Assembly (NCBI GenBank): GCA_965248695.1
Contig: CBDFKD010000002.1
Span: forward strand, 1,280,001 to 1,344,000
DNA length: 64,000 nt
Direction: 5' to 3'
Origin: Acidobacteriota bacterium
Lineage (GTDB): Bacteria; Acidobacteriota; UBA890; WLXD01
The position numbers and the translations under genes are program-made. Position 1 is the stretch's first letter. Each line of letters starts with the position of its first letter. The notes under the pieces were generated by a model that was not told the DNA's origin, did no database searches, and saw only the letters and a list, made by a program, of their open reading frames with translations. This document shows, in pieces, positions 7,477 through 61,166 of the stretch.

Positions 7477-10166
7477 TGCGCGCTCGCGCCTTCCTGTGCA
7501 ATTTGTCGCTGCGGGCGCTGCCGGCGCCCCTGCGCCGGGAACACGGCGCCGACATAACGGATCTCTATCTCGAGCGACAACGTCAGGCGCGTCGCCGAGG
7601 CCGGGCCGCGGCGGCGCGGTATTCGTTGTTGGCGTTCGTCGACTTGCTGGGCTCCGCCGCTCGAACCCGGTTCCGCCGCCGGGAGGCGCCGGCCCACCTC
7701 GCCCGATTGAACGACTCTCCCCTGAGCTCATGGACCCCTGAGATGCTTCTACGCGACCTGAACTTCGGTATTCGCACGCTCCTGCATCGCCCCGGATTCA
7801 CCGCCGTGGTGCTGATCACGCTGGGCCTGGGGATCGGCGCCAACGCCATCATCTACTCCGCGATCGACAACATCGTGCTCAACCCGTTCGACTTCCCGGA
7901 GCCTGATCGGACCGTCGCCATCGGGGTCGAATACCCGCGCTTGGGGCAACCACTGGGATTCTTCGAGGTGATCTCGCCGCCCGAGTACAACGACATCCTC
8001 GAACAGACGACGGCGTTCGAGCGCACGGCCGCATTCGACATCGGCAATCGACAGATCACCGGCGGCGACATTCCGCAGAATCTGCGTACCGGATTCTGGT
8101 GGGGCGATCCGCTGCGGGTGCTGGGCATGAGCCCGGTGCACGGGCGCTTCTTCTCGGCCGATGAGATTCGCCAACAGGCACCGCTGGCGCTGGTGAGCAA
8201 CCGGGTGTTCGAGTCACGTTTCGCCGGCGACCCCGCGATCGTCGGGCAGACGATCCAGATCAACGGCGTCGACCACACGCTGCTCGGCGTCTTCCCGACG
8301 CCGGCGGTGGTCTACGGGATCGATCTGTGGACGCCAATGTGGGCGCAGCCGGAAGACTTCACTCGCACCCGTCGGCAGATGAACGTCGTCGCCCGGCTCG
8401 GCGACGACGTCACGCTGACGCAGGCGAACGCCGAGCTCGAGGCAGTCGCACGCCGCACCGAGCTCGAGTACGGCGACCAGCACGACGAGTATGTCGGCTG
8501 GCGTCTGGAGACCATGACCTGGACCGACGCCAACGTCCGCACCCTCAAGCCCACCGCCTTCGTGCTCATGGGAACGGTGTCGTTCGTGCTGCTGTTGGTG
8601 TGCGCCAACGTCGCCAGCCTGCTGCTGTCACGCTCCTCGAGTCGTCGCCGAGAGATCGCGGTGCGCGCGGCACTGGGTGCCGGCCGTGCCCGGATCGTGC
8701 GGCAGCTGCTGTCCGAGAGCCTGCTGATGGCCGTGCTCGGCGGTGCCGTCGGGCTGGCGCTCGCCTGGGTCGGGCTGCAGTGGCTGGTAGCCAACACACC
8801 GGCACCGTTGTTGCCCACCACGCGGCCAATCGGCCTGAACCTGCGAGCGCTCTACTACACCGGCTTCGTATCGGTGCTTGCCGGCGTGCTCTTCGGTATC
8901 GTGCCGGCCCTGCAGTCGGCGCGCTTCGACCTGCACGGGACGCTCACCGAGAGTGGGCGCTCCACCGGCGGTCGCTCGCGCCGGCGGCTACACGGCGTGT
9001 TCGTCGCCGTCGAGGTGGCGCTGGCGCTGATGCTGTTGACCGGTGCCGGAATGTTCATCCACAGCTTCGCGCGCCTACAGCGAGTCGACCCCGGTATGGA
9101 CGTCGACAACGTCCTGACCATGCGACTCACGCTTCCCTGGGAGAAGTTCGAGGGTGAAGCGATTGCCAACTTCTTCGTCGACCTCGCCGACCGCGTGGAA
9201 AATATTCCCGGAGTCCGCAGCGCCGCGTCGGGATCGCAGTTCGCGCCGATCGGGTTCATCCGACAACGGTTCGCCATCGATGGACAGGCGGTCGCCGACG
9301 AGTCGGAGCTGCCCAACGCGCTGCTGACCATCGCCACCGCCGACTACTTCGAGACCCTCGGCATCCCGTTACGAACCGGCCGCTTCTTCGACAGCGGCGA
9401 CCTGCCTGGCACCCAAACGGTGACGGTGATCAACCAGACCCTGGCGACGCGCACCTTCGGCGACGAGCCCGCGGTCGGCAAGCGCATCAAGCTCGGCGCC
9501 CCGGACGACGAGGAGCGCCCGTGGCTCACGGTCGTCGGTGTGGTTGGCGACACCAAGAACAACGGCCTGGCGGCGCCGGTGCAACCCGAGCTGTTCGTCG
9601 GCCTGCGACAGGTGAACGGCGTGTTCAACCAGCTGTACCTGCTGGTGCGAACCGAGGCCGAGCCGCGCGCGCTGTTGCCGCAGATCAGACAGGCGGTAGC
9701 AGATCTGGATCCAGAGCAACCGATCTACGGCATTCGAACAGTAGACGAGGCCTTCGCCCAGGGCTTCGCCATGGAGGGGTTCGCGCTGAGAATGCTGACG
9801 GCGTTCTCGGTCCTCGCGCTGGTACTCGCCGCGGTAGGCATTTCCGGCGTGGTGGCATTCGCAGTGAGTGAGCGGTCGCGCGAGATCGGTGTACGTATGG
9901 CGCTGGGCGCGGTCGGCTCGGAGGTGCGTCGCCTGGTAGTGCGGCAAGCGCTGCTCCCGGTGGCCATCGGCGCGGTGATCGGTCTGGGGTTGTCGATGGC
10001 GCTCGGGCAGGCTCTATCAAGCATCCTCTTCGAGGTCGGGATGGGCGATCCGACGACGATGCTCGGCGTGGCCATTGTGCTCGGCCTGGTGGCGGCGGCA
10101 GCCGGCTACCTGCCCGCCCGACGAGCCAGCCGCATCGACCCGGTAGCGGCATTGCGAGCGGAGTAG
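7476..10166 (+). CDS. Duplicated MacB/FtsX ABC permease (ADOP type)
   Basis: Two FtsX-like units (RRREIAVRAALGAGR and RSREIGVRMALGA); N-terminal PGFTAVVLITLGLGIGAN; C-terminal PARRASRIDPVAALRAE. Confidence 0.92.
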   Translation: MRARAFLCNLSLRALPAPLRREHGADITDLYLERQRQARRRGRAAAARYSLLAFVDLLGSAARTRFRRREAPAHLARLNDSPLSSWTPEMLLRDLNFGIRTLLHRPGFTAVVLITLGLGIGANAIIYSAIDNIVLNPFDFPEPDRTVAIGVEYPRLGQPLGFFEVISPPEYNDILEQTTAFERTAAFDIGNRQITGGDIPQNLRTGFWWGDPLRVLGMSPVHGRFFSADEIRQQAPLALVSNRVFESRFAGDPAIVGQTIQINGVDHTLLGVFPTPAVVYGIDLWTPMWAQPEDFTRTRRQMNVVARLGDDVTLTQANAELEAVARRTELEYGDQHDEYVGWRLETMTWTDANVRTLKPTAFVLMGTVSFVLLLVCANVASLLLSRSSSRRREIAVRAALGAGRARIVRQLLSESLLMAVLGGAVGLALAWVGLQWLVANTPAPLLPTTRPIGLNLRALYYTGFVSVLAGVLFGIVPALQSARFDLHGTLTESGRSTGGRSRRRLHGVFVAVEVALALMLLTGAGMFIHSFARLQRVDPGMDVDNVLTMRLTLPWEKFEGEAIANFFVDLADRVENIPGVRSAASGSQFAPIGFIRQRFAIDGQAVADESELPNALLTIATADYFETLGIPLRTGRFFDSGDLPGTQTVTVINQTLATRTFGDEPAVGKRIKLGAPDDEERPWLTVVGVVGDTKNNGLAAPVQPELFVGLRQVNGVFNQLYLLVRTEAEPRALLPQIRQAVADLDPEQPIYGIRTVDEAFAQGFAMEGFALRMLTAFSVLALVLAAVGISGVVAFAVSERSREIGVRMALGAVGSEVRRLVVRQALLPVAIGAVIGLGLSMALGQALSSILFEVGMGDPTTMLGVAIVLGLVAAAAGYLPARRASRIDPVAALRAE

Positions 10167-49984: not shown

Positions 49985-50055
49985 TAGCTTCGGTGCCGTG
50001 CCCCGGAGATGAGAGGGAGTCAGCAGGGTGCCACGACTTGCGCTGCGTCGTGAAA

Positions 50056-50075
50056 ATGAGACATAGTTGTCTCAT
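50056..50075. promoter_or_regulatory. TetR operator palindrome
   Basis: ATGAGACA-TAGT-TGTCTCAT, overlapping the tetR start in a divergent region. Confidence 0.7.
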
Positions 50076-50640
50076 GCGAGACAAAGAACGTCGGACACGA
50101 TCGCAGCTACTCGACGCTGCCGCCGCCGTGCTGGCGGCGCGCCCCGGGGCATCGATGGCGGAGATCGCCGAACAGGCGCGCGTCGGCCGCGCCACGCTAT
50201 ACCGCTACTTCGCTTCCCGCGATGCGCTCATACGTGCTTTGGCGCTGGAGTCGATGGCCGAGATCGATCGTGTAACCGCTCCAATCGGCGAGCAGTCCAC
50301 CAGCGCACGGCACGCGTTGCAGCTGATATTCGACGCGATCGTACCCATAGGCGAGCGCTACCACTTCCTGATGAGCCAGCCCTACGACGAGGCATCCGAG
50401 GTCGAGCGCGAATACGACCGCCAAGCGGCAGAGCTCGGCGAGCTCATCGAGATGGCCAAGGACGAGGGATCCATCGCGCGAGAGGTGCCCACCGCCTGGG
50501 TCGCGGCCCTGTTCGATGCGCTCATCTATACCGCCTGGTTCACCGTTCACGAGGGCAGCATCGCGTCACGCGACGCTGCTGCCCTTGCCTTCCGAAGCCT
50601 CTTGGATGGTCTGTCCCCCGACAAAGGAACGTCGTCATGA
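50074..50640 (+). CDS. TetR/AcrR regulator
   Basis: ASMAEIAEQARVGRATLYRYFASRDAL. Confidence 0.92.
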   Translation: MRDKERRTRSQLLDAAAAVLAARPGASMAEIAEQARVGRATLYRYFASRDALIRALALESMAEIDRVTAPIGEQSTSARHALQLIFDAIVPIGERYHFLMSQPYDEASEVEREYDRQAAELGELIEMAKDEGSIAREVPTAWVAALFDALIYTAWFTVHEGSIASRDAAALAFRSLLDGLSPDKGTSS

Positions 50641-52856
50641 AGCGCGTTGCCTCGCTCGCTCTACTGCTCCTCGCCATCGGCTCGGCGTGGATGAACCCCG
50701 AGACGGACGGTGTCACTCCGGCCGAGCCCGACGAAACCGCGATCGCCGGCGTCGTCGACGTGCGCGTGCCGGACATCGACGGCAACGTCCATCGTCCCGG
50801 CGGCGATTCCGGCTACCGTCCGTTCGCCCTCGTGTTTCTGGAGACGGGCTGCCCAATCTCGCGTCGCTACCTCCCGGACCTCAACGACATTGCGGCACGC
50901 GCCGTAGAGCGTGGAGTGGAGCTCTACGGTGTGCTGTCGGATCCGTCGACCACCCCGTCTGAGGCGCGAACATTCCGCGACGATCACGGGCTGCAGTTCC
51001 CGGTACTCTGGGACGCAACAGGCGACCTCGCCGATCGTCTCGGTCCCGAGATCGTGCCGGAGGTGTTCGTTATCGACGGTGCCGATCGGATCGTGTATCG
51101 CGGACGTATCGACGATCGCTTTGTGTCCCCTGGCAAGCTGCGCCGCACGGTCACCTCCCATGATCTGCTCGAGGCCATCAACGTGGTGGCTGCTGGTGGC
51201 CGTCCAGAGACCCAGCGAGCGCAGCCGATCGGTTGCTATTTCGAAGCCTGGGCCGACGCGGACACCCAGAACCCGACCTACCATCGCAACGTCGCACCGG
51301 TGCTCGAGGCCAACTGCGCCGAATGCCACACGGCGGGCGGCATCGGGCCATTCGAGCTGCGCACCTACGAGCAGGCACGACGACGACGCGGCATGATCGC
51401 CTACACCGTCGCCGAGCGCATCATGCCGCCGTGGCCAGCGGAGGTCGGGTATGGGCATTTTCGCGATCAGCGCACGCTGAGCGACGGACAAATCCAGATG
51501 CTACAAACCTGGGCCGACAACGGCGCACCGGAGGGCGACGCGGCGCATGCGCTTCCGACTCGCGCATCAGCCGACGCTTCGTGGCGTCTGGGCGATCCCC
51601 ACCAGCTGGTGGAGATGCCGATGCCATTCGACATCCCGGCGCAGGGCGAGGACATCTACCAATACTTCGTCGTTCGCGACGCCCTCGACCAGGACCGCAT
51701 GATCACCGGCATCGACTTTCGGCCCGGTGACCCCAGCGTCGTGCACCACGGGATCTTCTACGTCGACTACAGCGGTGAGGCGCGGGCACTCGACGAATCT
51801 ACCCCCGGTGTTGGCTTCTCGGTGTTCGAGGGGGGTGGGTTCATGCAGAGTGAGAACGCCATGGCCATTGGCGGCTGGGCGCCGGGATCCGATCCCTACT
51901 CGTTGCCTGACGGGCTCGCGATGAGCCTCCGCGGTGGTGCCGATATCGTGCTGGAGATTCACTACCACCTCACCGGCAAGGCCAGCCGCGACCAAAGCAC
52001 TATGGCCCTCTATTTCGCTGATGGCGAGGTGGAGCGCACCGTCGATGCACTCTGGATGTCGGAAATGAACCTCGACATCGAGCCCGGCGACGCGCGCTAC
52101 GAGCGCCACCTGAGCCTCGAGCTGCCGGTGGATGTGCAGCTGATCGACGTGTCGCCGCACATGCACTACATCGGTAAGAGCGCCAAGGTAGTCGCCACAC
52201 TGCCCGACGGCACCGAACGTCCGCTGATTCACATCCCGGCGTGGGATTTCCGTTGGCAAAACGTCTACACGTTTCGACAGGCCGTCGAGTTGCCGGCAGG
52301 CTCGCGCATTGACGCCTGGTATCAGTGGGACAACTCGGCCGACAATCCGGCCAACCCCAGCAATCCGCCGGTGCCGGTTGAATGGGGTCTGCAGTCCACC
52401 GACGAGATGGGTGAGCTGTACATGACATACGTGGCAGACAGCGCCGACGATGAAGCGAAAATGCAAGCCGCGATGCTAGCGGCGGCGGCCCAAATGATGG
52501 CCGGCGACCAGGTTCCAGCCGCAGCGCTCGAGAGCCCCGAAGCGGCGCTCGAGGCACTCACGACTATGAGCCTGTGGGAGCCGGCAGCGGAAGCGATCCT
52601 GATCGGATTGAGCGACAGCGAGTACGAGGAGCTCGTCGGTCTGGCCTACACCGCGGCGAGCGCTTGGGACGATGCCGACGCGATCGCGCTATACGGCGGG
52701 CTATTGGCGATCGCCGCGATCTACTCCGGAGGCAGCGAGCAAGAGGCGCTGGCGACGGAGTCGGAGCGGGCGCTCGATCGTGCGTTAGAGCTCGATCCGG
52801 ACAACACCGAGGCCCGACGCGCCAAGGACGCAATGCAAAGTTGGAGCGCCGGGTAG
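50637..52856 (+). CDS. Exported redoxin + c-type heme + copper type II monooxygenase-like fusion with TPR-like tail
   Basis: GCPIS redoxin with YRGRIDD; CAECH; Cu-ligand-like VVHH, EIHYH, PHMH and DEM; ALDRALELDPDN. Confidence 0.82.
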   Translation: MKRVASLALLLLAIGSAWMNPETDGVTPAEPDETAIAGVVDVRVPDIDGNVHRPGGDSGYRPFALVFLETGCPISRRYLPDLNDIAARAVERGVELYGVLSDPSTTPSEARTFRDDHGLQFPVLWDATGDLADRLGPEIVPEVFVIDGADRIVYRGRIDDRFVSPGKLRRTVTSHDLLEAINVVAAGGRPETQRAQPIGCYFEAWADADTQNPTYHRNVAPVLEANCAECHTAGGIGPFELRTYEQARRRRGMIAYTVAERIMPPWPAEVGYGHFRDQRTLSDGQIQMLQTWADNGAPEGDAAHALPTRASADASWRLGDPHQLVEMPMPFDIPAQGEDIYQYFVVRDALDQDRMITGIDFRPGDPSVVHHGIFYVDYSGEARALDESTPGVGFSVFEGGGFMQSENAMAIGGWAPGSDPYSLPDGLAMSLRGGADIVLEIHYHLTGKASRDQSTMALYFADGEVERTVDALWMSEMNLDIEPGDARYERHLSLELPVDVQLIDVSPHMHYIGKSAKVVATLPDGTERPLIHIPAWDFRWQNVYTFRQAVELPAGSRIDAWYQWDNSADNPANPSNPPVPVEWGLQSTDEMGELYMTYVADSADDEAKMQAAMLAAAAQMMAGDQVPAAALESPEAALEALTTMSLWEPAAEAILIGLSDSEYEELVGLAYTAASAWDDADAIALYGGLLAIAAIYSGGSEQEALATESERALDRALELDPDNTEARRAKDAMQSWSAG

Positions 52857-53917: not shown

Positions 53918-54192
53918 CAGGCCGTGGTGAGAGTGCGGTGGGTCTGGCGACAGGGTCTTGCGAGGCGCAGGCCAGCAGAGAGGAGGAGGCGATGGTTAGC
54001 CCATCGTTGACGACGAACGACGCAGCATACGCGCGCAACCCCCAGTCGCCCGAAGGGTTACGGCGATTTGGGGCCATCTGCGGCGTTGGCCTTCCTCGAC
54101 GATGGCTAGGGCATCGTGTGCGTCACGCCGCCTTGCATCTGGCCCCAACTCGCCGTAACCAGACCCACCACACTTTCACCACGGCCTGCTAG
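53914..54192. mobile_element. Full-length non-autonomous element (MITE), 279 bp
   Basis: 34-bp terminal inverted repeats including CTAG (2 mismatches), internal hairpins, no transposase; lies between convergent genes. Confidence 0.85.
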
Positions 54193-56645
54193 GCCTTCCC
54201 TGGAAGGAATCCGATCTTCTGAGTGCTCGCCCAGGCGCGCTCGGGGAACAGCTCCTCCAGCGCGCCGGAGAAATCAGCGGCGGTGACCGCCGGGTCGGCG
54301 CTCTCGGAGTCGAGCTCTCGCAGCACAGCGTTGCGCCCAGCGGCGGTGCACAGCCCCCGCAGATCGGCGCCGCTGGCGCCTTGGGCAGCGATCGCGATGC
54401 TGGCCAGATCCACCTGTTCACCGAGCTTCATGCGCCGCGTGAACAGGCCGAGCAATGCCAGCCGTCCCTCGATGTCGGGGAGACCGATCTCGATCGCTTC
54501 GCTGAGGCGCCCCGGACGCAGCGCCGCATCATCGACCAGCTCCGGGCGATTGGTGGCCCCGACGACGAAGATCCGTCGGGTCGCGGCGATGCCGTCCATC
54601 TCGGCCAGGAAAGTGTTCACCACGGCGTTGGCGGCTCGGGTGCCACCGGAACCACCCTCGGCGCGCGAGCCGAGGACGGAGTCGATCTCGTCGATGAAGA
54701 TGATCGCCGGTACGTTGTCGCGCGCCTGCTCGAAGATCTCGCGCACCCGCTGCTCAGACTGACCGAACCACTTCGAGAACACGTCGGCGGCGTTGACGGC
54801 GAAAAAGGAAGCGTCGGTTTGCGACGCCAGCACCCGCGCGATGGTCGTCTTGCCGGTGCCCGGCGGCCCGTGCAGCAGCCAGCCGGTGGGCGGGTCGACC
54901 CCGAGCTCGCGCACCAACTGAGGATTCTCGATGAAGCGCTCCACGAACTGCAGCTTGCGCATCGCTTCGGTCGGCAGGATGAGGTCGTTCCACTCCAGGC
55001 GGGGACCGTCGTAGCGGCGCTCGGCGATGCGCTCCTGCAGCGCCGCCTCCAGGTGATCGGGCGAGATGGGCGCGTGCGTCTCCATCGCCGCCATGGCGGC
55101 ACCGTCGACCACACTGCGTACCTGTGCTGCCGAGAAGCCCTCCATGGCGTGTGCCATGGCGGTGGCGTCGACGTTGTCGTCGTGCGGCCGGTCGCGCAGC
55201 AGCACATGCAGGATCTCGCGGCGGGCATCGAAATCGGGCCGGTAGATCTTCACCTTGTAGTCGAAGCGACCCTCGCGGATGGCCGCCGGATCGATCTCCT
55301 TGAGCCGGTTCGTTGCCGCCATGATGACCACGCCAGCCACATCGCGCGTCGCATCGATCTGCTGCAGCAGGGTGTTGACCATTTGCTGCTCGTGGTTGCT
55401 CCCCTGATCGTCACGGCGCCCGGCGATCGAGTCGAACTCGTCGAAGAACAGCAGACACGGTGTGTTGTCGCGTGCCTCGGCAAACACCTTCTCGATGGCC
55501 TCGGGCGCGCCGCCGACGTACTTGGTGACCATGCTGCCCAGGCTGACGCGCAAGAACTTCAGCCCGAACTCACCGGCGATGGCCTCGGCGAAGAACGTCT
55601 TGCCGCACCCCGGCGGACCGTAGAGCAGGATGCCGTTGCGTCCGATGCCGTAGCGCTGCGCCTCGTCGCGGCGCTGGTGCACGACCGCAATGATGCGCCG
55701 CACCTGGTCCTTGAGCGCGTTCATGCCGCCGACCTTCGAGAAATCGACCGTGGCCGGGGATTCGGCCGGCGGCGACCCGAACCGGGGCGCTGGCGGACGG
55801 TCAGACTGCGGGGCTGACTGTGCCAGCTCATCGCGCAGGGCCTTGTAGGGCCGTCGCGGCGACAGCTGGATGGCGCGCCCGACGGCGGTCAGCGCCTCGC
55901 CGAAGCGCCCCAGCGCCTGCAAGTAGGTGCTCAGATTGAACCAGTAGACACCGTCGCCGCCACTGCCGACAGTACGCGGGTCGAGCTCGGTGGCGCGCGT
56001 AGCCACCGTGACAGCACCGGCAGCATCGTCGAGACCATCGTGGAGGATCACCCCGAGACGGTTGTTGTATACGGCGTTTTCCGGCTCGCGGGCGAGCGCC
56101 TCCTCGATCGCAGCGCGCGCCTCCGGCCAGCGCTCCTGGCGCACAAGGACACTGCTGCGGGCATAGGGCACACGACCCGGCCGCATCGGATCCGCCGGCT
56201 CGCCAGCGGCACCGCCCTCGAGCTTCCAGGCGGCGTCAAAGTGTTTCAGAGCGTCCTCGTGACGCTGCAGCCGCAGGCACACGTCGCCGAGCAGCAGGCA
56301 GATGCGGGGATCTGCGGGAGCCTGTTCGGCAGCCTCGAGAGCGACAGCGAGAGCTCGATCGGGATCTTGCGAGAGGTAGCAGCGCGCCAGGTACTCGCCA
56401 ACGGCCGCCGGACGATCAGCGATCGGCGGTTGCGCAGCATCGGCCGCCTGTTCGAGATGCTTGCGCGCCTCCCCGATATTGCCCATGTGGTACTGCGCCG
56501 CTCCGAGCCAGAAGCGGGCCTGGTCGTTATCCGGTTGACGCAGGACAGCCTGCGAGAAGTGCTTGCGCGCGGTGCGAAAGTCACGTTGATCGAAGGCCGC
56601 GATCCCTTCCGCGAGGCTGCCCTCGACGAACGGGTCGGGCTTCAC
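54189..56645 (-). CDS. TPR-repeat + tandem AAA+ (CDC48/VAT-like) ATPase
   Basis: N-terminal TPRs; D1 GPPGCGKT/LLFFDE/ATNR..IDPAAIREGRFD; D2 GPPGTGKT/IIFIDE/ATNRPELVDDAALRPGRL. Confidence 0.92.
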   Translation of the reverse strand: MKPDPFVEGSLAEGIAAFDQRDFRTARKHFSQAVLRQPDNDQARFWLGAAQYHMGNIGEARKHLEQAADAAQPPIADRPAAVGEYLARCYLSQDPDRALAVALEAAEQAPADPRICLLLGDVCLRLQRHEDALKHFDAAWKLEGGAAGEPADPMRPGRVPYARSSVLVRQERWPEARAAIEEALAREPENAVYNNRLGVILHDGLDDAAGAVTVATRATELDPRTVGSGGDGVYWFNLSTYLQALGRFGEALTAVGRAIQLSPRRPYKALRDELAQSAPQSDRPPAPRFGSPPAESPATVDFSKVGGMNALKDQVRRIIAVVHQRRDEAQRYGIGRNGILLYGPPGCGKTFFAEAIAGEFGLKFLRVSLGSMVTKYVGGAPEAIEKVFAEARDNTPCLLFFDEFDSIAGRRDDQGSNHEQQMVNTLLQQIDATRDVAGVVIMAATNRLKEIDPAAIREGRFDYKVKIYRPDFDARREILHVLLRDRPHDDNVDATAMAHAMEGFSAAQVRSVVDGAAMAAMETHAPISPDHLEAALQERIAERRYDGPRLEWNDLILPTEAMRKLQFVERFIENPQLVRELGVDPPTGWLLHGPPGTGKTTIARVLASQTDASFFAVNAADVFSKWFGQSEQRVREIFEQARDNVPAIIFIDEIDSVLGSRAEGGSGGTRAANAVVNTFLAEMDGIAATRRIFVVGATNRPELVDDAALRPGRLSEAIEIGLPDIEGRLALLGLFTRRMKLGEQVDLASIAIAAQGASGADLRGLCTAAGRNAVLRELDSESADPAVTAADFSGALEELFPERAWASTQKIGFLPGKA

Positions 56646-58930
56646 GCGGCGCTCCGATGCTCGTCGAGCGCGAAGCTCGGCACGCGCGGCTTGAGCTTCT
56701 CGTCGATGCGCCGCAAGGCCGACTCCAGCATCTCGCCCTCGACGTGGATGCCGGGATACGCGTCCATCACCATGCGCGGGTCATACTCGTAGTCAGATTC
56801 GCCGTTGACAGCTGCCGCCATGATGCCCATCCCACCGGCTGCCGGCATCGGGTCGATCCAGCCGCCTTCTTCGTAATTGCGGGCGAGCTCGTGAAAGATC
56901 GACCGTTGCCAGTGAGCGAGCATCGGGGTGGCTTTCCAGGTGTCGTCGATCACCCCTGCCTGACGGTACGCCTGCAGATAGAAATCGGCGCGCGCCTGGT
57001 CGCTGAACACGGCACAGCAATCCCGGTCGGGCAGCGTCATCACCGCAGCGGCGCCGTCGGCCAAGCGCTGCACACAAACGAAGTAACGCGGCCAATCGGC
57101 AACGATACGCCCGGTCAGCGTCGGGTTGAGCGACTCGTGCTGACGCGCCGCCTCGCGCAAGATTTCGGTACCGGACGGGCGGCGCTCCGACTGTTGCACC
57201 CAGGCGCTCAGCACCACCAGATCGGTGTGATCCAGGGTCAGCGGCCGCTCGCCGCCGGGATCCAGCACCACACCGTCGAGCTCGGCGCAGTCGCGCAGCC
57301 AGCCGGCGAACGGCGGCTCGTCGGTTCGCGGCGCGGCGGTGAGCGTGCCGCATTCGGCGTTGTCGAACGCGAAGTAGCTGTCGGCGCTGCTGAATACCGG
57401 CAAGTAGAGGCCGCCCGAGTGGGCCACCTTGGGCGGCGTCCTGCCATTGCCTTTGACCATCACCAGCCGGTTCCAGCCGCGCAGCAACGCCCGCGTCACC
57501 TGCGGTTGCGAGCCGCGCGCTCCGACCCCCCGACCGAGCTTCGCAAGGGCGACGGCCTCGACGTCGTCGAGATTGTCGATGTCGTGGAAGTGCGGGTAGA
57601 CGGCGCTCAACACCCAGAACGTCGGTACCGTGACCCAGCCGGTGGTGCCCGGGTACAGGTTGATCGCCACTTCGTCGATTCCTTTCGGGGCGGCCCATGC
57701 CCAGCGCAACACCTCGACACCGGCGAGATGGAAGTACTCGTCGCCGGCGGCGCCGTCGTCGGTGAGCTGCTTGGCGATCTTCTCGGCGTAGAAGCTGTGC
57801 GTGATGACCTTCTTGTCATCTTCCGGGTGCGAGAAGACGCTCGGCCATCGCAAGCCGTCGACACGCTCGTGATGAACTGGAACGTATAGATCGATGCCGT
57901 AGGCAAGATGGTCGGTGTAGTCCCACAACGGGACCGCCTTCGCCTGGAGCTTCTCCTGCATGTCGCGGAACAGCCGGTGGGTTTCCTCGCCCGGGCGACT
58001 CGGCGGGCGGATCGGCGGCAGGGACGGAAAGCGGGTCGCGTACGCGGCGGCGCCCGTAGCCTCGGGCTCCGGACCGGCGGTTGTCATCGTACCGGTGGCA
58101 GCATGCGGGTCGCCCGGTGTCGGAACCGCGGCGCTCGGCTGTGCCGTATCGGCCACCTCGCCGCCGAGCATTTGCACCATACGCAGCATGTCCTGGCGCA
58201 CGTAGGCGCGCTCGAACGGTAGTCCCTGGTCGACGAGCAGCGCCGTCACGCCGGCGTCGAGCAGTGATCCCAAGATCTCGGGCGTGGGTACTGCCGGCGT
58301 CGTTGGCTCCGGCAAAGTGGAGTGCTCCTCGACCCACTCGGCGAAGCGCGCGTCGCTATAGACGGTTGCCAGCTGATTCTGGCCGTCGGCATCGCGGGTG
58401 ATGAGAGCCTCTCCGCGGCTGCAGAGCAGGAACAGCTCCGGCAGCTGCGCGAAGCTCTCCATGTTCAGCAGGGCATAGACGCGCGCGCACGAGTGCGTCG
58501 GCAACTCCAGCTCGTGATCCGTGCCCTGATCCAGGATGACACCAGCGTGCTGCTCGCCCATGACGTCCCATAGCCAACCGTCCATTCCCTTGGACATGAA
58601 GGGGGCATTGCCGTCGGGCTCGATGAGACCCTGGGTTACGGCCAGCTCGCGGGCATGATCGTCGTCGAAGAACAGGCTGAGCAGAAAGCCGCCGTCCGGC
58701 TGGTCACGGCCGTACATGCGCGGCGGCGCGGCGTCGTTCACCAGGACATTGCCGAAGCCCTTCTCGTCGGTCGCGGCGCTCATGTCCTGCATGTACCGCG
58801 CCATCTGGCCGGGAGGCACGAAGGCGCACACGTGGTCGACGTCCGCCAGCGCGTCGGCAAGGTCGTACAGGTCGGCGTCGCCGCGCCCATACGCCGCCAG
58901 GACTGCCTCGATACCGGAATGCTGCGACAT
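56642..58930 (-). CDS. Hypothetical protein with ~5 tandem SseB-like domains
   Basis: Repeating (L/A)xxF(S/T)(S/D)...G(V/I)(V/I)(L/I)(D/N)(P/Q)G pattern; GTGA overlap with the AAA gene. Confidence 0.65.
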   Translation of the reverse strand: MSQHSGIEAVLAAYGRGDADLYDLADALADVDHVCAFVPPGQMARYMQDMSAATDEKGFGNVLVNDAAPPRMYGRDQPDGGFLLSLFFDDDHARELAVTQGLIEPDGNAPFMSKGMDGWLWDVMGEQHAGVILDQGTDHELELPTHSCARVYALLNMESFAQLPELFLLCSRGEALITRDADGQNQLATVYSDARFAEWVEEHSTLPEPTTPAVPTPEILGSLLDAGVTALLVDQGLPFERAYVRQDMLRMVQMLGGEVADTAQPSAAVPTPGDPHAATGTMTTAGPEPEATGAAAYATRFPSLPPIRPPSRPGEETHRLFRDMQEKLQAKAVPLWDYTDHLAYGIDLYVPVHHERVDGLRWPSVFSHPEDDKKVITHSFYAEKIAKQLTDDGAAGDEYFHLAGVEVLRWAWAAPKGIDEVAINLYPGTTGWVTVPTFWVLSAVYPHFHDIDNLDDVEAVALAKLGRGVGARGSQPQVTRALLRGWNRLVMVKGNGRTPPKVAHSGGLYLPVFSSADSYFAFDNAECGTLTAAPRTDEPPFAGWLRDCAELDGVVLDPGGERPLTLDHTDLVVLSAWVQQSERRPSGTEILREAARQHESLNPTLTGRIVADWPRYFVCVQRLADGAAAVMTLPDRDCCAVFSDQARADFYLQAYRQAGVIDDTWKATPMLAHWQRSIFHELARNYEEGGWIDPMPAAGGMGIMAAAVNGESDYEYDPRMVMDAYPGIHVEGEMLESALRRIDEKLKPRVPSFALDEHRSAA

Positions 58931-59135
58931 TGGATCCCCTCCCCGACCTCGGGACCCGGGTGCGACGAAGGCGCCTGCCCGCGCCGAACCGGCTGTTATC
59001 GGCTATGAATGGCCGTTGATGAGCACCAACAGCTATTGATGATAATTAGTGGCCGGCGATGGCCCAAAGCCCAATCGTTTCGGTGGGCAAGATCCCGGCC
59101 GGTCACCTCGCCGCGCGTCCGCCGCGAAAGCAGAG

Positions 59136-59933
59136 CTACGGGGCGCCGCCGAACTGGATGCTGATGGCGCAGCCGCCGGTGTCAGCGTCGACCAGGGTAA
59201 CGGTGACGGAGCGCTCGGGATCGTCCATTGCCGCCTGCATCATCACCATCACGCTGGCGCCCGCCGCCGCCGCTGCCGAGGCAGACGACGCGACGATGCG
59301 AAATCCTGCCGCCGGCAGGGCCTCGGTGTAGAAGGCGTTTACCTGCGAGCAGGCATCGTCGGTGCTCATCTGGAACGCGCCGGCGATGCCGGCGGCCGTA
59401 GCGCCGCGGAAACCGCCGGGGGCGATGGTGCCGGCCGGGTACAGGTCGAGCCACTCGGGGAGATCCTCGCCACCCAGCGCCCCGATGCGCGAGATCGACC
59501 CGTCGACGCCGGTCGCGGTGATCCCGCCGCCGTTGGCGTCGGTATCGAACGACACCGCGCCTTTGTCAGTGGTGATCGAGAAACGGCCCTCGGTGATGGC
59601 CTCGAAATTCAGCGTCAGCTCGTCGCCCGTCTCCGTGTTGCGCACCGTCATCGTGCCGGCGTCGTCGTCGCTTTCGACCAGCTCGATGTCGGGGTTGGTC
59701 CGCACCGCCAGCTCGGCCATCGCCTTGGCAGGATTCGTCTCGAAGTCGCTGGCCAGCTCGCGCGCCGCCTGCGTGACGACCAGTCCACACGCCACGCAAG
59801 CCCCCATGGTGAGCGCGAAGAGAACGCCGACAACGATTAGCACCCAGGCCAGGGTGCTGAGCCCTTTCTTGGCAGCGGGTGTCGCGGCGGGAGTGGGGTC
59901 CGGGGGCGGGCTCGGGGGGGTCGACTCGGACAT
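59136..59933 (-). CDS. Hypothetical single-pass membrane protein
   Basis: Pro-rich N-terminus, KKGLSTLAWVLIVVGV TM and LPEWLDLYPAG. Confidence 0.7.
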   Translation of the reverse strand: MSESTPPSPPPDPTPAATPAAKKGLSTLAWVLIVVGVLFALTMGACVACGLVVTQAARELASDFETNPAKAMAELAVRTNPDIELVESDDDAGTMTVRNTETGDELTLNFEAITEGRFSITTDKGAVSFDTDANGGGITATGVDGSISRIGALGGEDLPEWLDLYPAGTIAPGGFRGATAAGIAGAFQMSTDDACSQVNAFYTEALPAAGFRIVASSASAAAAAGASVMVMMQAAMDDPERSVTVTLVDADTGGCAISIQFGGAP

Positions 59934-60146
59934 TCGCCGTCTCCTGGATCGTTTCGAGGTGGGTCTGGGCGCATCGGGGTTGCGAGCCATTCTATGCGCC
60001 AGGGCGTCGATATGACCACACTGGTTCGGCTGCGCGGCAGGCGATCGGAAGTGCGTTTGACAGCTCTGACGACGGCACGCAAGATGCCCGTAACCACGCC
60101 TTTCCCCCTTTCCACTCCCGCGCCGGGAGTCTGAGAGGCAATCCGC

Positions 60147-61166
60147 ATGAGCCTGGCAGATATCGCGCAACAAATCGTGGCGCCGCAGAAGGGGGTCCTC
60201 GCAGCCGACGAGAGCTCGCCCACCATCAAGAAGCGCTTCGACTCCATCGGCGTCGAATCGACCGAGGAGGCGCGGCGGTCCTACCGTCAGCTGTTGTTCA
60301 CCGCCACCGCCGCCGCCCCCTACATCGGCGGCGTCATTCTGTTCGACGAAACGCTGCGGCAGAGCTCGGGTGACGGCGTACCGTTCTCCAAGGTGCTCAG
60401 CGACCAGAGCATCGTGCCGGGCATCAAGGTCGACAAGGGCGCCAAGGATCTAGTCGGCTGCCCCGGCGAGAAGGTCACCGAGGGGCTCGACGGCCTGCGC
60501 GAGCGTCTCGCCGAGTACTACGAGCTCGGAGCCCGTTTCACCAAGTGGCGTGCCGTTATCACCATAGGCAACAACATACCGAGCCGCACCTGCATCGAGG
60601 CCAATGCGCACGGGCTGGCGCGCTTCGCGGCGCTGACTCAGGAAGCCAACATGGTGCCGATCGTCGAGCCGGAGGTGTTGATGGCCGGCGACCACACCAT
60701 CGAGCGCTGCGCCGAGGCCACCGAGGCCACGCTTGCCGAGGTCTATCACCAGCTACACATCCAGCGCGTCGAGCTGGAGGGAACGCTGCTGAAGCCCAAC
60801 ATGGTGGTATCGGGCGATCAGTGCCCCGTGCAGGCCGACCGCGACGCCGTCGCCGAGGCGACCATTCGCATCCTGCGGCGCACCGTACCGGGAGCAGTTC
60901 CGGGCATCGTGTTCCTCTCCGGCGGGCTGTCGGAGATCGACGCCACCGACTTCCTCAACGCCATGAACCAGCGTGGGACCCACCCGTGGGAGCTCAGCTA
61001 CTCGTTCGGACGGGCTCTGCAGGCGTCGGCGCTCAAGGCGTGGGGCGGAGAGGCCGACAACGAAGAGGCGGCTCAGAACGCCTTCGCACACCGGGCGCGC
61101 TGCAATGGTCTGGCGCGTAGCGGCGATTACTCCGCCACCGTCGAGGGCAGCGAGGCCGCCGCGTAG
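60147..61166 (+). CDS. Class I fructose-bisphosphate aldolase (eukaryote-like)
   Basis: KGVLAADES, GIKVDKG, KWRAVI, VPIVEPEV, LLKPNMV and SYSFGRALQ. Confidence 0.96.
   Translation: MSLADIAQQIVAPQKGVLAADESSPTIKKRFDSIGVESTEEARRSYRQLLFTATAAAPYIGGVILFDETLRQSSGDGVPFSKVLSDQSIVPGIKVDKGAKDLVGCPGEKVTEGLDGLRERLAEYYELGARFTKWRAVITIGNNIPSRTCIEANAHGLARFAALTQEANMVPIVEPEVLMAGDHTIERCAEATEATLAEVYHQLHIQRVELEGTLLKPNMVVSGDQCPVQADRDAVAEATIRILRRTVPGAVPGIVFLSGGLSEIDATDFLNAMNQRGTHPWELSYSFGRALQASALKAWGGEADNEEAAQNAFAHRARCNGLARSGDYSATVEGSEAAA

Follow-up and report, generated by a model that had tools for sequence, protein, structure and literature searches.

A two-gene unit of an Acidobacteriota bacterium encoding a five-module SseB/Tic22-like protein and a TPR-headed, Cdc48-like double AAA+ ATPase: a candidate adaptor-unfoldase pair

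We analysed a 64,000-nucleotide stretch of DNA from an Acidobacteriota bacterium (hereafter the window) and found on its minus strand a two-gene unit. Gene 1 encodes a protein of five homologous SseB/Tic22-like modules. Gene 2 encodes a Cdc48-like double AAA+ ATPase with tetratricopeptide repeats (TPRs) at its N-terminus and a conserved [IVLM]-G-F tripeptide in its C-terminal tail. Judging from the sequences, we consider the chances about even that the pair forms an adaptor/holdase plus unfoldase module. Adaptor plus unfoldase is the most economical reading, and it rests on homology and linkage.

Results

A coupled gene pair

The original prediction, made from the letters of the window, had described a GTGA-coupled pair, the first gene of which encodes a 762-aa protein without a signal peptide. 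The open reading frames (ORFs), the sequence and the hydropathy bore out these points and the gene coordinates.

56642..58930, minus strand: gene 1 (P0001), 762 aa, five SseB/Tic22-like modules, predicted cytosolic (ORF, ATG start, translation)
54189..56645, minus strand: gene 2 (P0002), 818 aa, TPR plus double classical AAA+ ATPase (ORF, GTG start)
56642..56645, minus strand: GTGA overlap of the gene 1 stop codon (TGA) and the gene 2 start codon (GTG) (direct sequence reading)

A Kyte-Doolittle scan found no 19-mer with a mean above 1.4 in either product; thus, no membrane helix or signal-peptide core was seen in the two proteins. Downstream of the pair lies a glucokinase gene in convergent orientation, which limits the unit to two genes.

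Gene 1 consists of five homologous modules

A self-BLAST of P0001 gave no internal matches; it took profile methods to reveal the repeats. Word-index searches for homologues, with the single protein and with a profile, returned P0003 alone. An exhaustive phmmer search yielded 86 family representatives at E<=1e-3, of which 45 reached E<=1e-30. Thirty-nine full-length family members were aligned (alignment A1), and the alignment was cut into segments for profile-profile comparison with hhalign. The segments and the features between them are as follows.

58451..58753, minus strand: module D1, residues about 60-160 (hhalign to D2, D4 and D5; VIA match to a Tic22 chain)
58145..58453, minus strand: module D2, residues about 160-262 (VIA-align to 2z0r, TTHA0547)
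57941..58144, minus strand: linker, residues 263-330, in which a disordered part (263-291) precedes a conserved Pro-rich motif and a helix (pLDDT, alignment)
57521..57943, minus strand: module D3, residues about 330-470, the best conserved of the five (A1 invariant columns, hhalign, VIA to Tic22)
57131..57469, minus strand: module D4, residues about 488-600, Pfam SseB match (PF07179)
56816..57133, minus strand: module D5, residues about 600-705 (hhalign to D1 and D4)
56645..56815, minus strand: C-terminal region with a conserved L-K-P-R-V-P-G/S-F tail, P748 invariant (alignment; model ordered to about residue 750)

The highest hhalign probabilities were obtained for D1-D4 (97.2%), D1-D2 (96.6%), D1-D5 (95.1%) and D4-D5 (93.1%), followed by D2-D3 (84.4%), D1-D3 (78.2%), D2-D5 (62.8%), D2-D4 (58.7%), D3-D5 (32.7%) and D3-D4 (28.0%). 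Control segments (linker 262-330, 440-505 and C-terminal 705-762) stayed below 1% in every comparison, apart from the trivial overlap of D3 with 440-505. The direct D2-D4 and D3-D4 values are weak, so D2 and D3 are tied to the SseB-matching module through D1 and D2. The AlphaFold2 (AF2) model of gene 1 had a predicted local distance difference test score (pLDDT) of 88.7 and a predicted template modelling score of 0.63, and it showed the same order of strand-strand-strand-helix-strand-helix-strand-strand-helix in all five modules. Residues 263-291, with pLDDT <50, divide the protein into a D1-D2 block and a D3-D5 block. The profile-profile scores and the uniform order of secondary structure indicated that gene 1 consists of five homologous modules, in agreement with the five-fold repeat first picked out in the letters. 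The residues of D3 that are invariant in A1 are W362, P363, R409, W410 and P446.

The Pro-rich motif of the linker (residues 296-316) reads P-P-x-R-P-P-x-R in P0001 and PPPGR in most relatives, with the consensus L-P-P-V-P-P-P-G-R-x-D-E-E-S-R in close ones. It was seen in 12 aligned family members, including copies from loci lacking the ATPase, and could be a short linear binding motif.

Comparison of gene 1 with SseB and Tic22

The SseB family PF07179 matched module 4 at E<=0.01 in 38 of the 39 family members (best 2.4e-13); the orthologue in genome G007 scored 34.6 bits, and those in loci L008 and L023 scored 51.9 and 26.5 bits, respectively, so that these orthologues exceed the gathering score of 21. 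Modules 1, 2, 3 and 5 gave no Pfam match at E<=10, and hhalign showed that these four are homologous to the SseB-matching module 4. Module 2 superposed on TTHA0547 (2z0r), an uncharacterised protein of T. thermophilus, with Z 11.8 and a root-mean-square deviation of 2.5 A over 93 of 100 residues (VIA-align, model residues 160-255). A structure search independent of Foldseek gave Z 11.1 for module 2 against 2z0r.

Tic22 structures ranked next after 2z0r: 4e6z (Z 4.8), 4ev1 (Z 4.6), and 8xks_I and 8xqw_Q (both Z 4.4), with unrelated rows at 3.5 or below. The match of 8xqw_Q fell on D1 (residues 33-140), and those of 4e6z and 8xks_I fell on D3 (residues 333-425). A Pfam search of P0001 at E<=1 gave no Tic22 match. 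Whether queried with the whole protein or with residues 60-262 alone, the Atlas gave SseB proteins as its nearest named clusters, with scores of 0.85-0.87 that serve as leads only. A search of PDB sequences with the gene 1 profile returned chance-level matches to ribosomal protein L18 at E 1 and nothing else, and a fold search of BFVD gave no match at E<=0.001.

In an independent analysis, Iyer et al. (2022; PMC9503650) related the SseB domain to the Tic22 peptide-binding chaperones (HHpred 89%) and predicted that it acts as a chaperone. Together with this account, the homology of the modules and the matches to SseB and 2z0r mean that the assignment as SseB-like, which had been made by eye with PF07179 and fold comparison proposed as checks, stands. 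The literature searched contained no experimentally shown function of an SseB domain and no mention of TTHA0547.

Gene 2 encodes a TPR head and two intact AAA domains

Gene 2 is composed of the following parts.

55815..56645, minus strand: TPR head, residues 1-277, 15 helices forming seven TPRs and a capping helix (Pfam TPR families at 1-270; AF2 pLDDT >90)
55011..55745, minus strand: AAA domain D1, residues about 301-545, with GPPGCGKT, pore loop KYVG, FFDEFD, ATN and IREGRFD
54228..55010, minus strand: AAA domain D2, residues about 546-806, with GPPGTGKT, pore loop KWFG, FIDEID, ATN and LRPGRL
54192..54227, minus strand: disordered tail, residues 807-818, with IGF at residues 811-813 (nt 54207-54215) (pLDDT <50)

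PF00004 matched P0002 in two stretches with AAA lids (265.5 bits), and the closest solved relatives were Cdc48/p97/VAT (E about 1e-111, two matched stretches). The AF2 model (pLDDT 87.7) showed a disordered linker at residues 281-297, two AAA modules and the disordered tail. To judge motif conservation, we used 39 orthologues of 42-90% identity (alignment A3). Walker A, Walker B, the sensor-1 Asn and both arginines of each domain were invariant or nearly so; the position of KYVG in D1 was aromatic in 34 of the 39, and the Trp of KWFG in D2 was kept in all 39. Thus, P0002 has two tandem intact classical AAA domains, as do Cdc48, p97 and VAT. No CDC48 N-domain family was among its listed Pfam matches. 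The Pfam matches, the AF2 model and the motif conservation confirmed the earlier claim that TPRs take the place of the CDC48 N-domain ahead of two intact ATPase modules.

P0002 was also compared with named families, and none of them accommodated it. It scored 367.9 bits against the CDC48 family (TIGR01243, cut-off 802.65), in addition to carrying TPRs at residues 1-277. The scores were 83.3 bits for EccA (TIGR03922, cut-off 466.65) and 36.1 bits for ClpA (TIGR02639, cut-off 993.15), the classical-clade families scoring far higher than ClpA. For IetA (NF042959, IteA) the score was 257.8 bits with a cut-off of 510, and the genes next to the pair in the window include none for a protease. P0002 also fell far under the cut-offs of PAN and FtsH.

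A conserved tripeptide in the C-terminal tail of the ATPase

The tail of P0002 reads ...QKIGFLPGKA. An [IVLM]-G-F tripeptide was present in 38 of the 39 orthologues, 0-9 residues from the end, and the rest of the tail was variable. This fits the earlier remark that the protein ends in IGF rather than HbYX. Among 84 further relatives of about 500-800 aa, most of which have non-TPR N-termini, the tripeptide was found in 63, often as R-x-P-IGF; the background was 11 of 1751 30-residue windows (0.6%). Since relatives with other N-termini share the motif, it is the mark of a broader clade whose heads vary; it is absent from a more distant group (P0196-P0212, about 46% identity). Double-AAA proteins of about 500-740 aa with the R-x-P-[IVM]GF tail (P0129-P0193) have mostly non-TPR heads and share 54-67% identity over the AAA part.

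ClpP-docking Clp ATPases use an [LIV]-G-[FL] tripeptide. Tripeptide-bearing loops are mentioned in PMC8745299. The genome encodes one ClpP and one HslV; a PF00227 search of the genome found HslV as its only match and no 20S proteasome. Neither hallmark of the CDC48/PAN-type proteasome activators, an HbYX tail and a 20S particle in the genome, is thus present. Unfolded clients may be handed to a protease; the conservation and disorder of the tail motif, the presence of ClpP and HslV and the absence of 20S lend this hand-off indirect support.

Recurrent linkage of the two genes in genomes and, probably, in metagenomes

The note that preceded this work had proposed co-occurrence of the two genes as a check. 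We found the pair adjacent in three genomes and in two genomic contexts, and the members of eight further pairs probably lie on the same contig. The searches gave the following counts.

Gene 1 (P0001) search, 61 relatives: match in 3
Gene 1 profile (A1), 401 Acidobacteriota genomes: 4 (G000, G003, G007, G064)
Gene 1 profile (A1), 401 Gemmatimonadota genomes, the phylum of G401 (a Gemmatimonadaceae metagenome-assembled genome, MAG): 1
Full-length ATPase orthologue (P0002), 401 Acidobacteriota genomes: 3 (G000, G003, G007)
ATPase (P0002), 401 Gemmatimonadota genomes: 0

All three Acidobacteriota genomes with a full-length ATPase orthologue also hold gene 1, which occurs in one of the four other genomes of the window's own genus. 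In G003 the pair is syntenic with the window and the GTGA overlap is kept. In G007, which belongs to another genus, the genes lie 10 nt apart among glycosidase and GMP-synthase-like genes; since these surroundings differ, the two genes have stayed together in a second context. A search for related loci with an 8-row gene 1 profile returned two genome loci and one metagenome locus, too few for statistics.

For metagenome clusters, two genes were placed on one contig when their records shared the source and an identical longest-contig size. By this measure, 7 of 30 gene 1 representatives matched an ATPase relative among the 120 listed (sizes 9791, 16753, 22146, 7546, 182987, 99020 and 11806). 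P0003 and P0094 likewise share 17139, which brings the same-contig pairs inferred in this way to eight. One of them (P0017/P0112) comes from a Gemmatimonadales MAG. When its genome was sought among 301 Gemmatimonadales genomes, G401 was the sole match, and we still infer the adjacency of P0017 and P0112 from contig size. The identities of gene 1 and of the ATPase to those of the window fall in parallel (gene 1/ATPase, %: 82/90, 46/70, 40/65, 38/63, 38/62, 36/60, 36/59, 31/57, 30/51).

The gene 1 copy of G007 (L006 about 10075-10095, G007:C2, minus strand) contains a 4-nt tandem GATC duplication that shifts the frame 49 residues before the end. The conserved tail runs on in the +1 frame to a TAG 10 nt before the ATPase start. 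The duplication could be a real mutation or an assembly error.

Surroundings of the pair and of its relatives

58931..59135, minus strand: upstream intergenic region, AT-richer stretch and GGAGGGG ribosome-binding site (sequence)

The GGAGGGG lies 6 nt ahead of the gene 1 ATG, and the 205-nt gap is AT-richer than its surroundings (66-68% G+C). No sigma-70 consensus was found in 58931..59135, which is likely the promoter region of the two-gene unit. Around the pair in the window lie genes for glucokinase, an aldolase, a nitroreductase and regulators. Upstream of gene 1, the ORF at 59136-60173 (minus strand) encodes a Pro/Ala-rich N-terminus, one hydrophobic helix and a domain of ~200 aa without a Pfam or PADLOC match; it is not kept beside the pair in G007. 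In the 929-aa product of the ORF at 50067-52856 (plus strand), residues 251-348 form an AhpC/TSA-redoxin domain, and the C-terminal part is long and unassigned. Because the TTG listed as its start makes this ORF overlap a TetR gene (49993-50640), translation probably begins further downstream.

At locus L014 (G064:C9, 8189-17082), about 600 nt separate the gene 1 homologue from the next gene, which encodes an 822-aa S8 peptidase/FG-GAP protein. A convergent gene for a 1148-aa protein with nSTAND-like and ClpB-type AAA_2 domains lies downstream, and an unannotatable 676-aa ORF lies divergently upstream of the homologue. At locus L030, a TPR double-AAA protein is encoded between a pyridoxal-phosphate-dependent enzyme and glycogen phosphorylase; three genomes from a single Acidobacteriota genus have it, and gene 1 is absent from these.

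Discussion

A proposed mechanism

Because of its family and its intact motifs, gene 2 can be read as a hexameric threading unfoldase. The protein would form a double-ring, Cdc48-like motor whose aromatic pore loops thread polypeptides first through the D1 ring and then through the D2 ring, and its TPR head, in place of the Cdc48 N-domain, would serve as a platform for cofactors or clients. The SseB/Tic22 domain is predicted to bind peptides and the two genes are coupled, which is why we read gene 1 as a putative multivalent holdase or adaptor. It would hold non-native or specific client polypeptides at several sites and present them to the motor or receive them from it, an arrangement that would resemble ClpS-ClpA or MecA-ClpC. 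Since the [IVLM]-G-F tripeptide sits on a flexible tail at the exit face of D2, it is best explained as a motif for docking a ring peptidase; the motor would thereby be placed on a self-compartmentalised peptidase, with ClpP as the first candidate and HslV as the second. We infer hexamer formation, binding between the two proteins, chaperone activity, the identity of the clients and protease docking from sequences and models. When the TPR head (residues 1-290) was paired with residues 280-762 of gene 1, the complex prediction scored 0.00; it was run without controls and speaks neither for nor against binding.

A more far-reaching proposal, which we find rather doubtful, is that the ATPase belongs to an undescribed clade of bacterial Cdc48-like double-ring unfoldases, marked by a flexible C-terminal [RK]-x-P-[IVM]-G-F tail and by N-terminal heads that can be exchanged. 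Through this tail the D2 exit face would dock on ClpP or HslV, and in the TPR branch the five-module SseB/Tic22-like holdase would deliver the substrate.

Alternative explanations and points against the proposal

Gene 1 might instead be a dedicated client or regulator of the ATPase, which is assembled, disassembled or turned over by the motor, or which caps or inhibits it. Tight coupling and co-inheritance agree with such a role, and the disordered Pro-rich linker and the C-terminal tail of gene 1, both conserved, could be sites of entry or recognition. The motifs are, however, the same in partnerless copies of gene 1, which indicates that they are not specific to the ATPase, and five modules of a peptide-binding type exceed the needs of a simple substrate. 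We regard this explanation as unlikely. The original prediction had thought of incoming toxins and phage proteins as targets. In the corresponding conflict or defence module, a five-module sensor or decoy array would capture invader proteins, and the ATPase would unfold or destroy them or would set off a response. Gene 1 is very patchily distributed (4/401 Acidobacteriota, 1/401 Gemmatimonadota and 1/4 of the remaining genomes in its genus), the occurrence of the pair in distant phyla suggests transfer, and gene 1 evolves much faster than the ATPase (30-46% versus 51-70% identity). SseB domains also occur in ADP-ribose-centred conflict systems, according to Iyer et al. (2022; PMC9503650). Against defence, gene 1 had no PADLOC match, and the IetA match of the ATPase in PADLOC (261.5 bits) is generic, with PAN, FtsH and CDC48 scoring similarly or higher. 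The pair contains no effector domain, its neighbours are metabolic or regulatory in the window and are glycosidases and a GMP-synthase-like gene in G007, and gene 1 has no plasmid or phage homologues. The toxin and phage-protein targets thus found no backing in a specific PADLOC match, in defence neighbours or in mobile-element homologues. The patchy distribution is the reason for which we keep defence as a rival despite absent positive support, and we judge it distinctly unlikely.

An aid to protein targeting or export, in which gene 1 escorts unfolded proteins to a translocon and the ATPase supplies the force, is suggested by the structural relationship of D1 and D3 to Tic22, weak as it is (Z 4.4-4.8). 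The models for such a role are Tic22 in chloroplast import and SseB-type proteins with a link to secretion. In bioRxiv 10.1101/2024.09.02.610899, Tic22 is counted among the subunits of the Orf2971/Ycf2-FtsHi AAA motor complex; the same source places chloroplast Tic22 across the membrane from the ATPase ring, which argues against the analogy, as do the lack of membrane segments in both proteins and the absence of a linked translocon or secretion gene in the six loci examined. We think an export role very improbable. Least probable of all, in our judgement, is that the two genes are mere neighbours inherited together without functional interplay. Each does occur without the other, but the stop/start overlap, the two genomic contexts, the eight pairs probably sharing a contig (30-82% identity in gene 1) and the parallel divergence all speak for a connection.

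Several observations weigh against the adaptor-unfoldase proposal itself. Binding between the two proteins and a chaperone role of the SseB-like modules in this setting are predictions. P0001 itself matched PF07179 with 20.6 bits (E 5.3e-4, residues 505-569), 0.4 bits short of the gathering score of 21, and the structural matches to Tic22 are weak (Z 4.4-4.8). The IGF of known ClpP partners sits on an internal loop and not on a C-terminal tail. Twenty-three of the 30 gene 1 representatives lack a contig match to the ATPase, some of them on contigs of 10-76 kb. Gene 1 stands without an adjacent ATPase at three loci, in G064, in G401 and on the metagenome contig L023, where the gene after it encodes an Ogt-like methyltransferase. 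The G064 genome, which is 94% complete, contains no orthologue of the ATPase, nor was a remnant of one seen in 19 kb; its gene 1 copy shares 75% identity with P0009, which has an ATPase on its contig. The G401 genome likewise has no ATPase orthologue. These partnerless copies retain every conserved motif of the paired ones. Conversely, a 757-aa TPR double-AAA protein about 40% identical to P0002 stands alone amid housekeeping genes (L030, G336:C1, 7523-9796). The link between gene 1 and the ATPase is not obligatory.

Significance

AAA+ unfoldases that work with adaptors and docked peptidases hold a central place in bacterial regulation and protein quality control. To our knowledge, the bacterial set (ClpXP, ClpAP/CP, Lon, FtsH, HslUV and Mpa/Cpa-20S) has long been regarded as nearly complete. 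An adaptor with a double-ring unfoldase and possibly a peptidase is a design of an already known kind. In the literature searched, with subscription journals outside its coverage, neither the pair nor an IGF-tailed Cdc48-like ATPase was described.

If the more far-reaching proposal is true, a Cdc48-like clade with an IGF tail and swappable heads would be an added member of the bacterial unfoldases, and the ClpP docking tripeptide would be usable from a C-terminal tail; the combination of the Cdc48 tail position with the Clp docking tripeptide would amount to a new kind of AAA+ protease. The pair would also give a multi-SseB protein its first assigned role and would be a cytosolic bacterial counterpart of the chloroplast Tic22-FtsHi partnership. 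Five SseB modules coupled to an unfoldase offer a concrete setting for the predicted peptide-binding chaperone role of a widespread domain. Both proteins are predicted to be soluble and have high-confidence models, which makes them amenable to ordinary biochemistry.

Comparison with known systems

The SseB proteins known so far are short and contain one or two modules (119-309 aa in the Atlas clusters), whereas the 762 aa of P0001 comprise five diverged modules, four of which escape Pfam; the likeness lies in the match of module 4 to PF07179 and the superposition of module 2 on 2z0r. Tic22 is a two-module alpha/beta chaperone of chloroplasts or cyanobacteria and the next-best structural match of gene 1 after 2z0r. 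It partners a classical-clade AAA motor (Ycf2/Orf2971-FtsHi), as gene 1 adjoins one, but it sits in the periplasm or intermembrane space on the opposite side of the membrane from the ATPase ring, and both proteins of the pair are predicted to be cytosolic.

EccA has an N-terminal TPR domain joined to an AAA module, and gene 2 resembles it in this fusion; EccA carries a single AAA domain of another clade, in contrast to the two classical ones of gene 2. IetA is a classical AAA protein with a partner gene, as is gene 2, but its partner is the S8 protease IetS, which has no counterpart in the window.

ClpS-ClpA and MecA-ClpC are encoded in small operons with the adaptor gene first. The pair shares with the ClpS-ClpA-ClpP and MecA-ClpC-ClpP systems this adaptor-first layout, a two-ring AAA+ motor and an [LIV]-G-[FL]-type tripeptide. 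It differs in that gene 2 belongs to the classical clade and not to Clp/Hsp100, that the tripeptide lies in the C-terminal tail, and that the gene 1 protein is unrelated to ClpS or MecA. Cpa of actinobacteria is reportedly a Cdc48-type proteasome interactor. With Cdc48/p97/VAT, gene 2 shares tandem classical AAA domains, catalytic motifs, aromatic pore loops, a putative N-terminal cofactor platform and a putative C-terminal docking tail; the N-domain there is a double-psi barrel and the tail is HbYX, whereas gene 2 has seven TPRs and [IVLM]GF in these positions.

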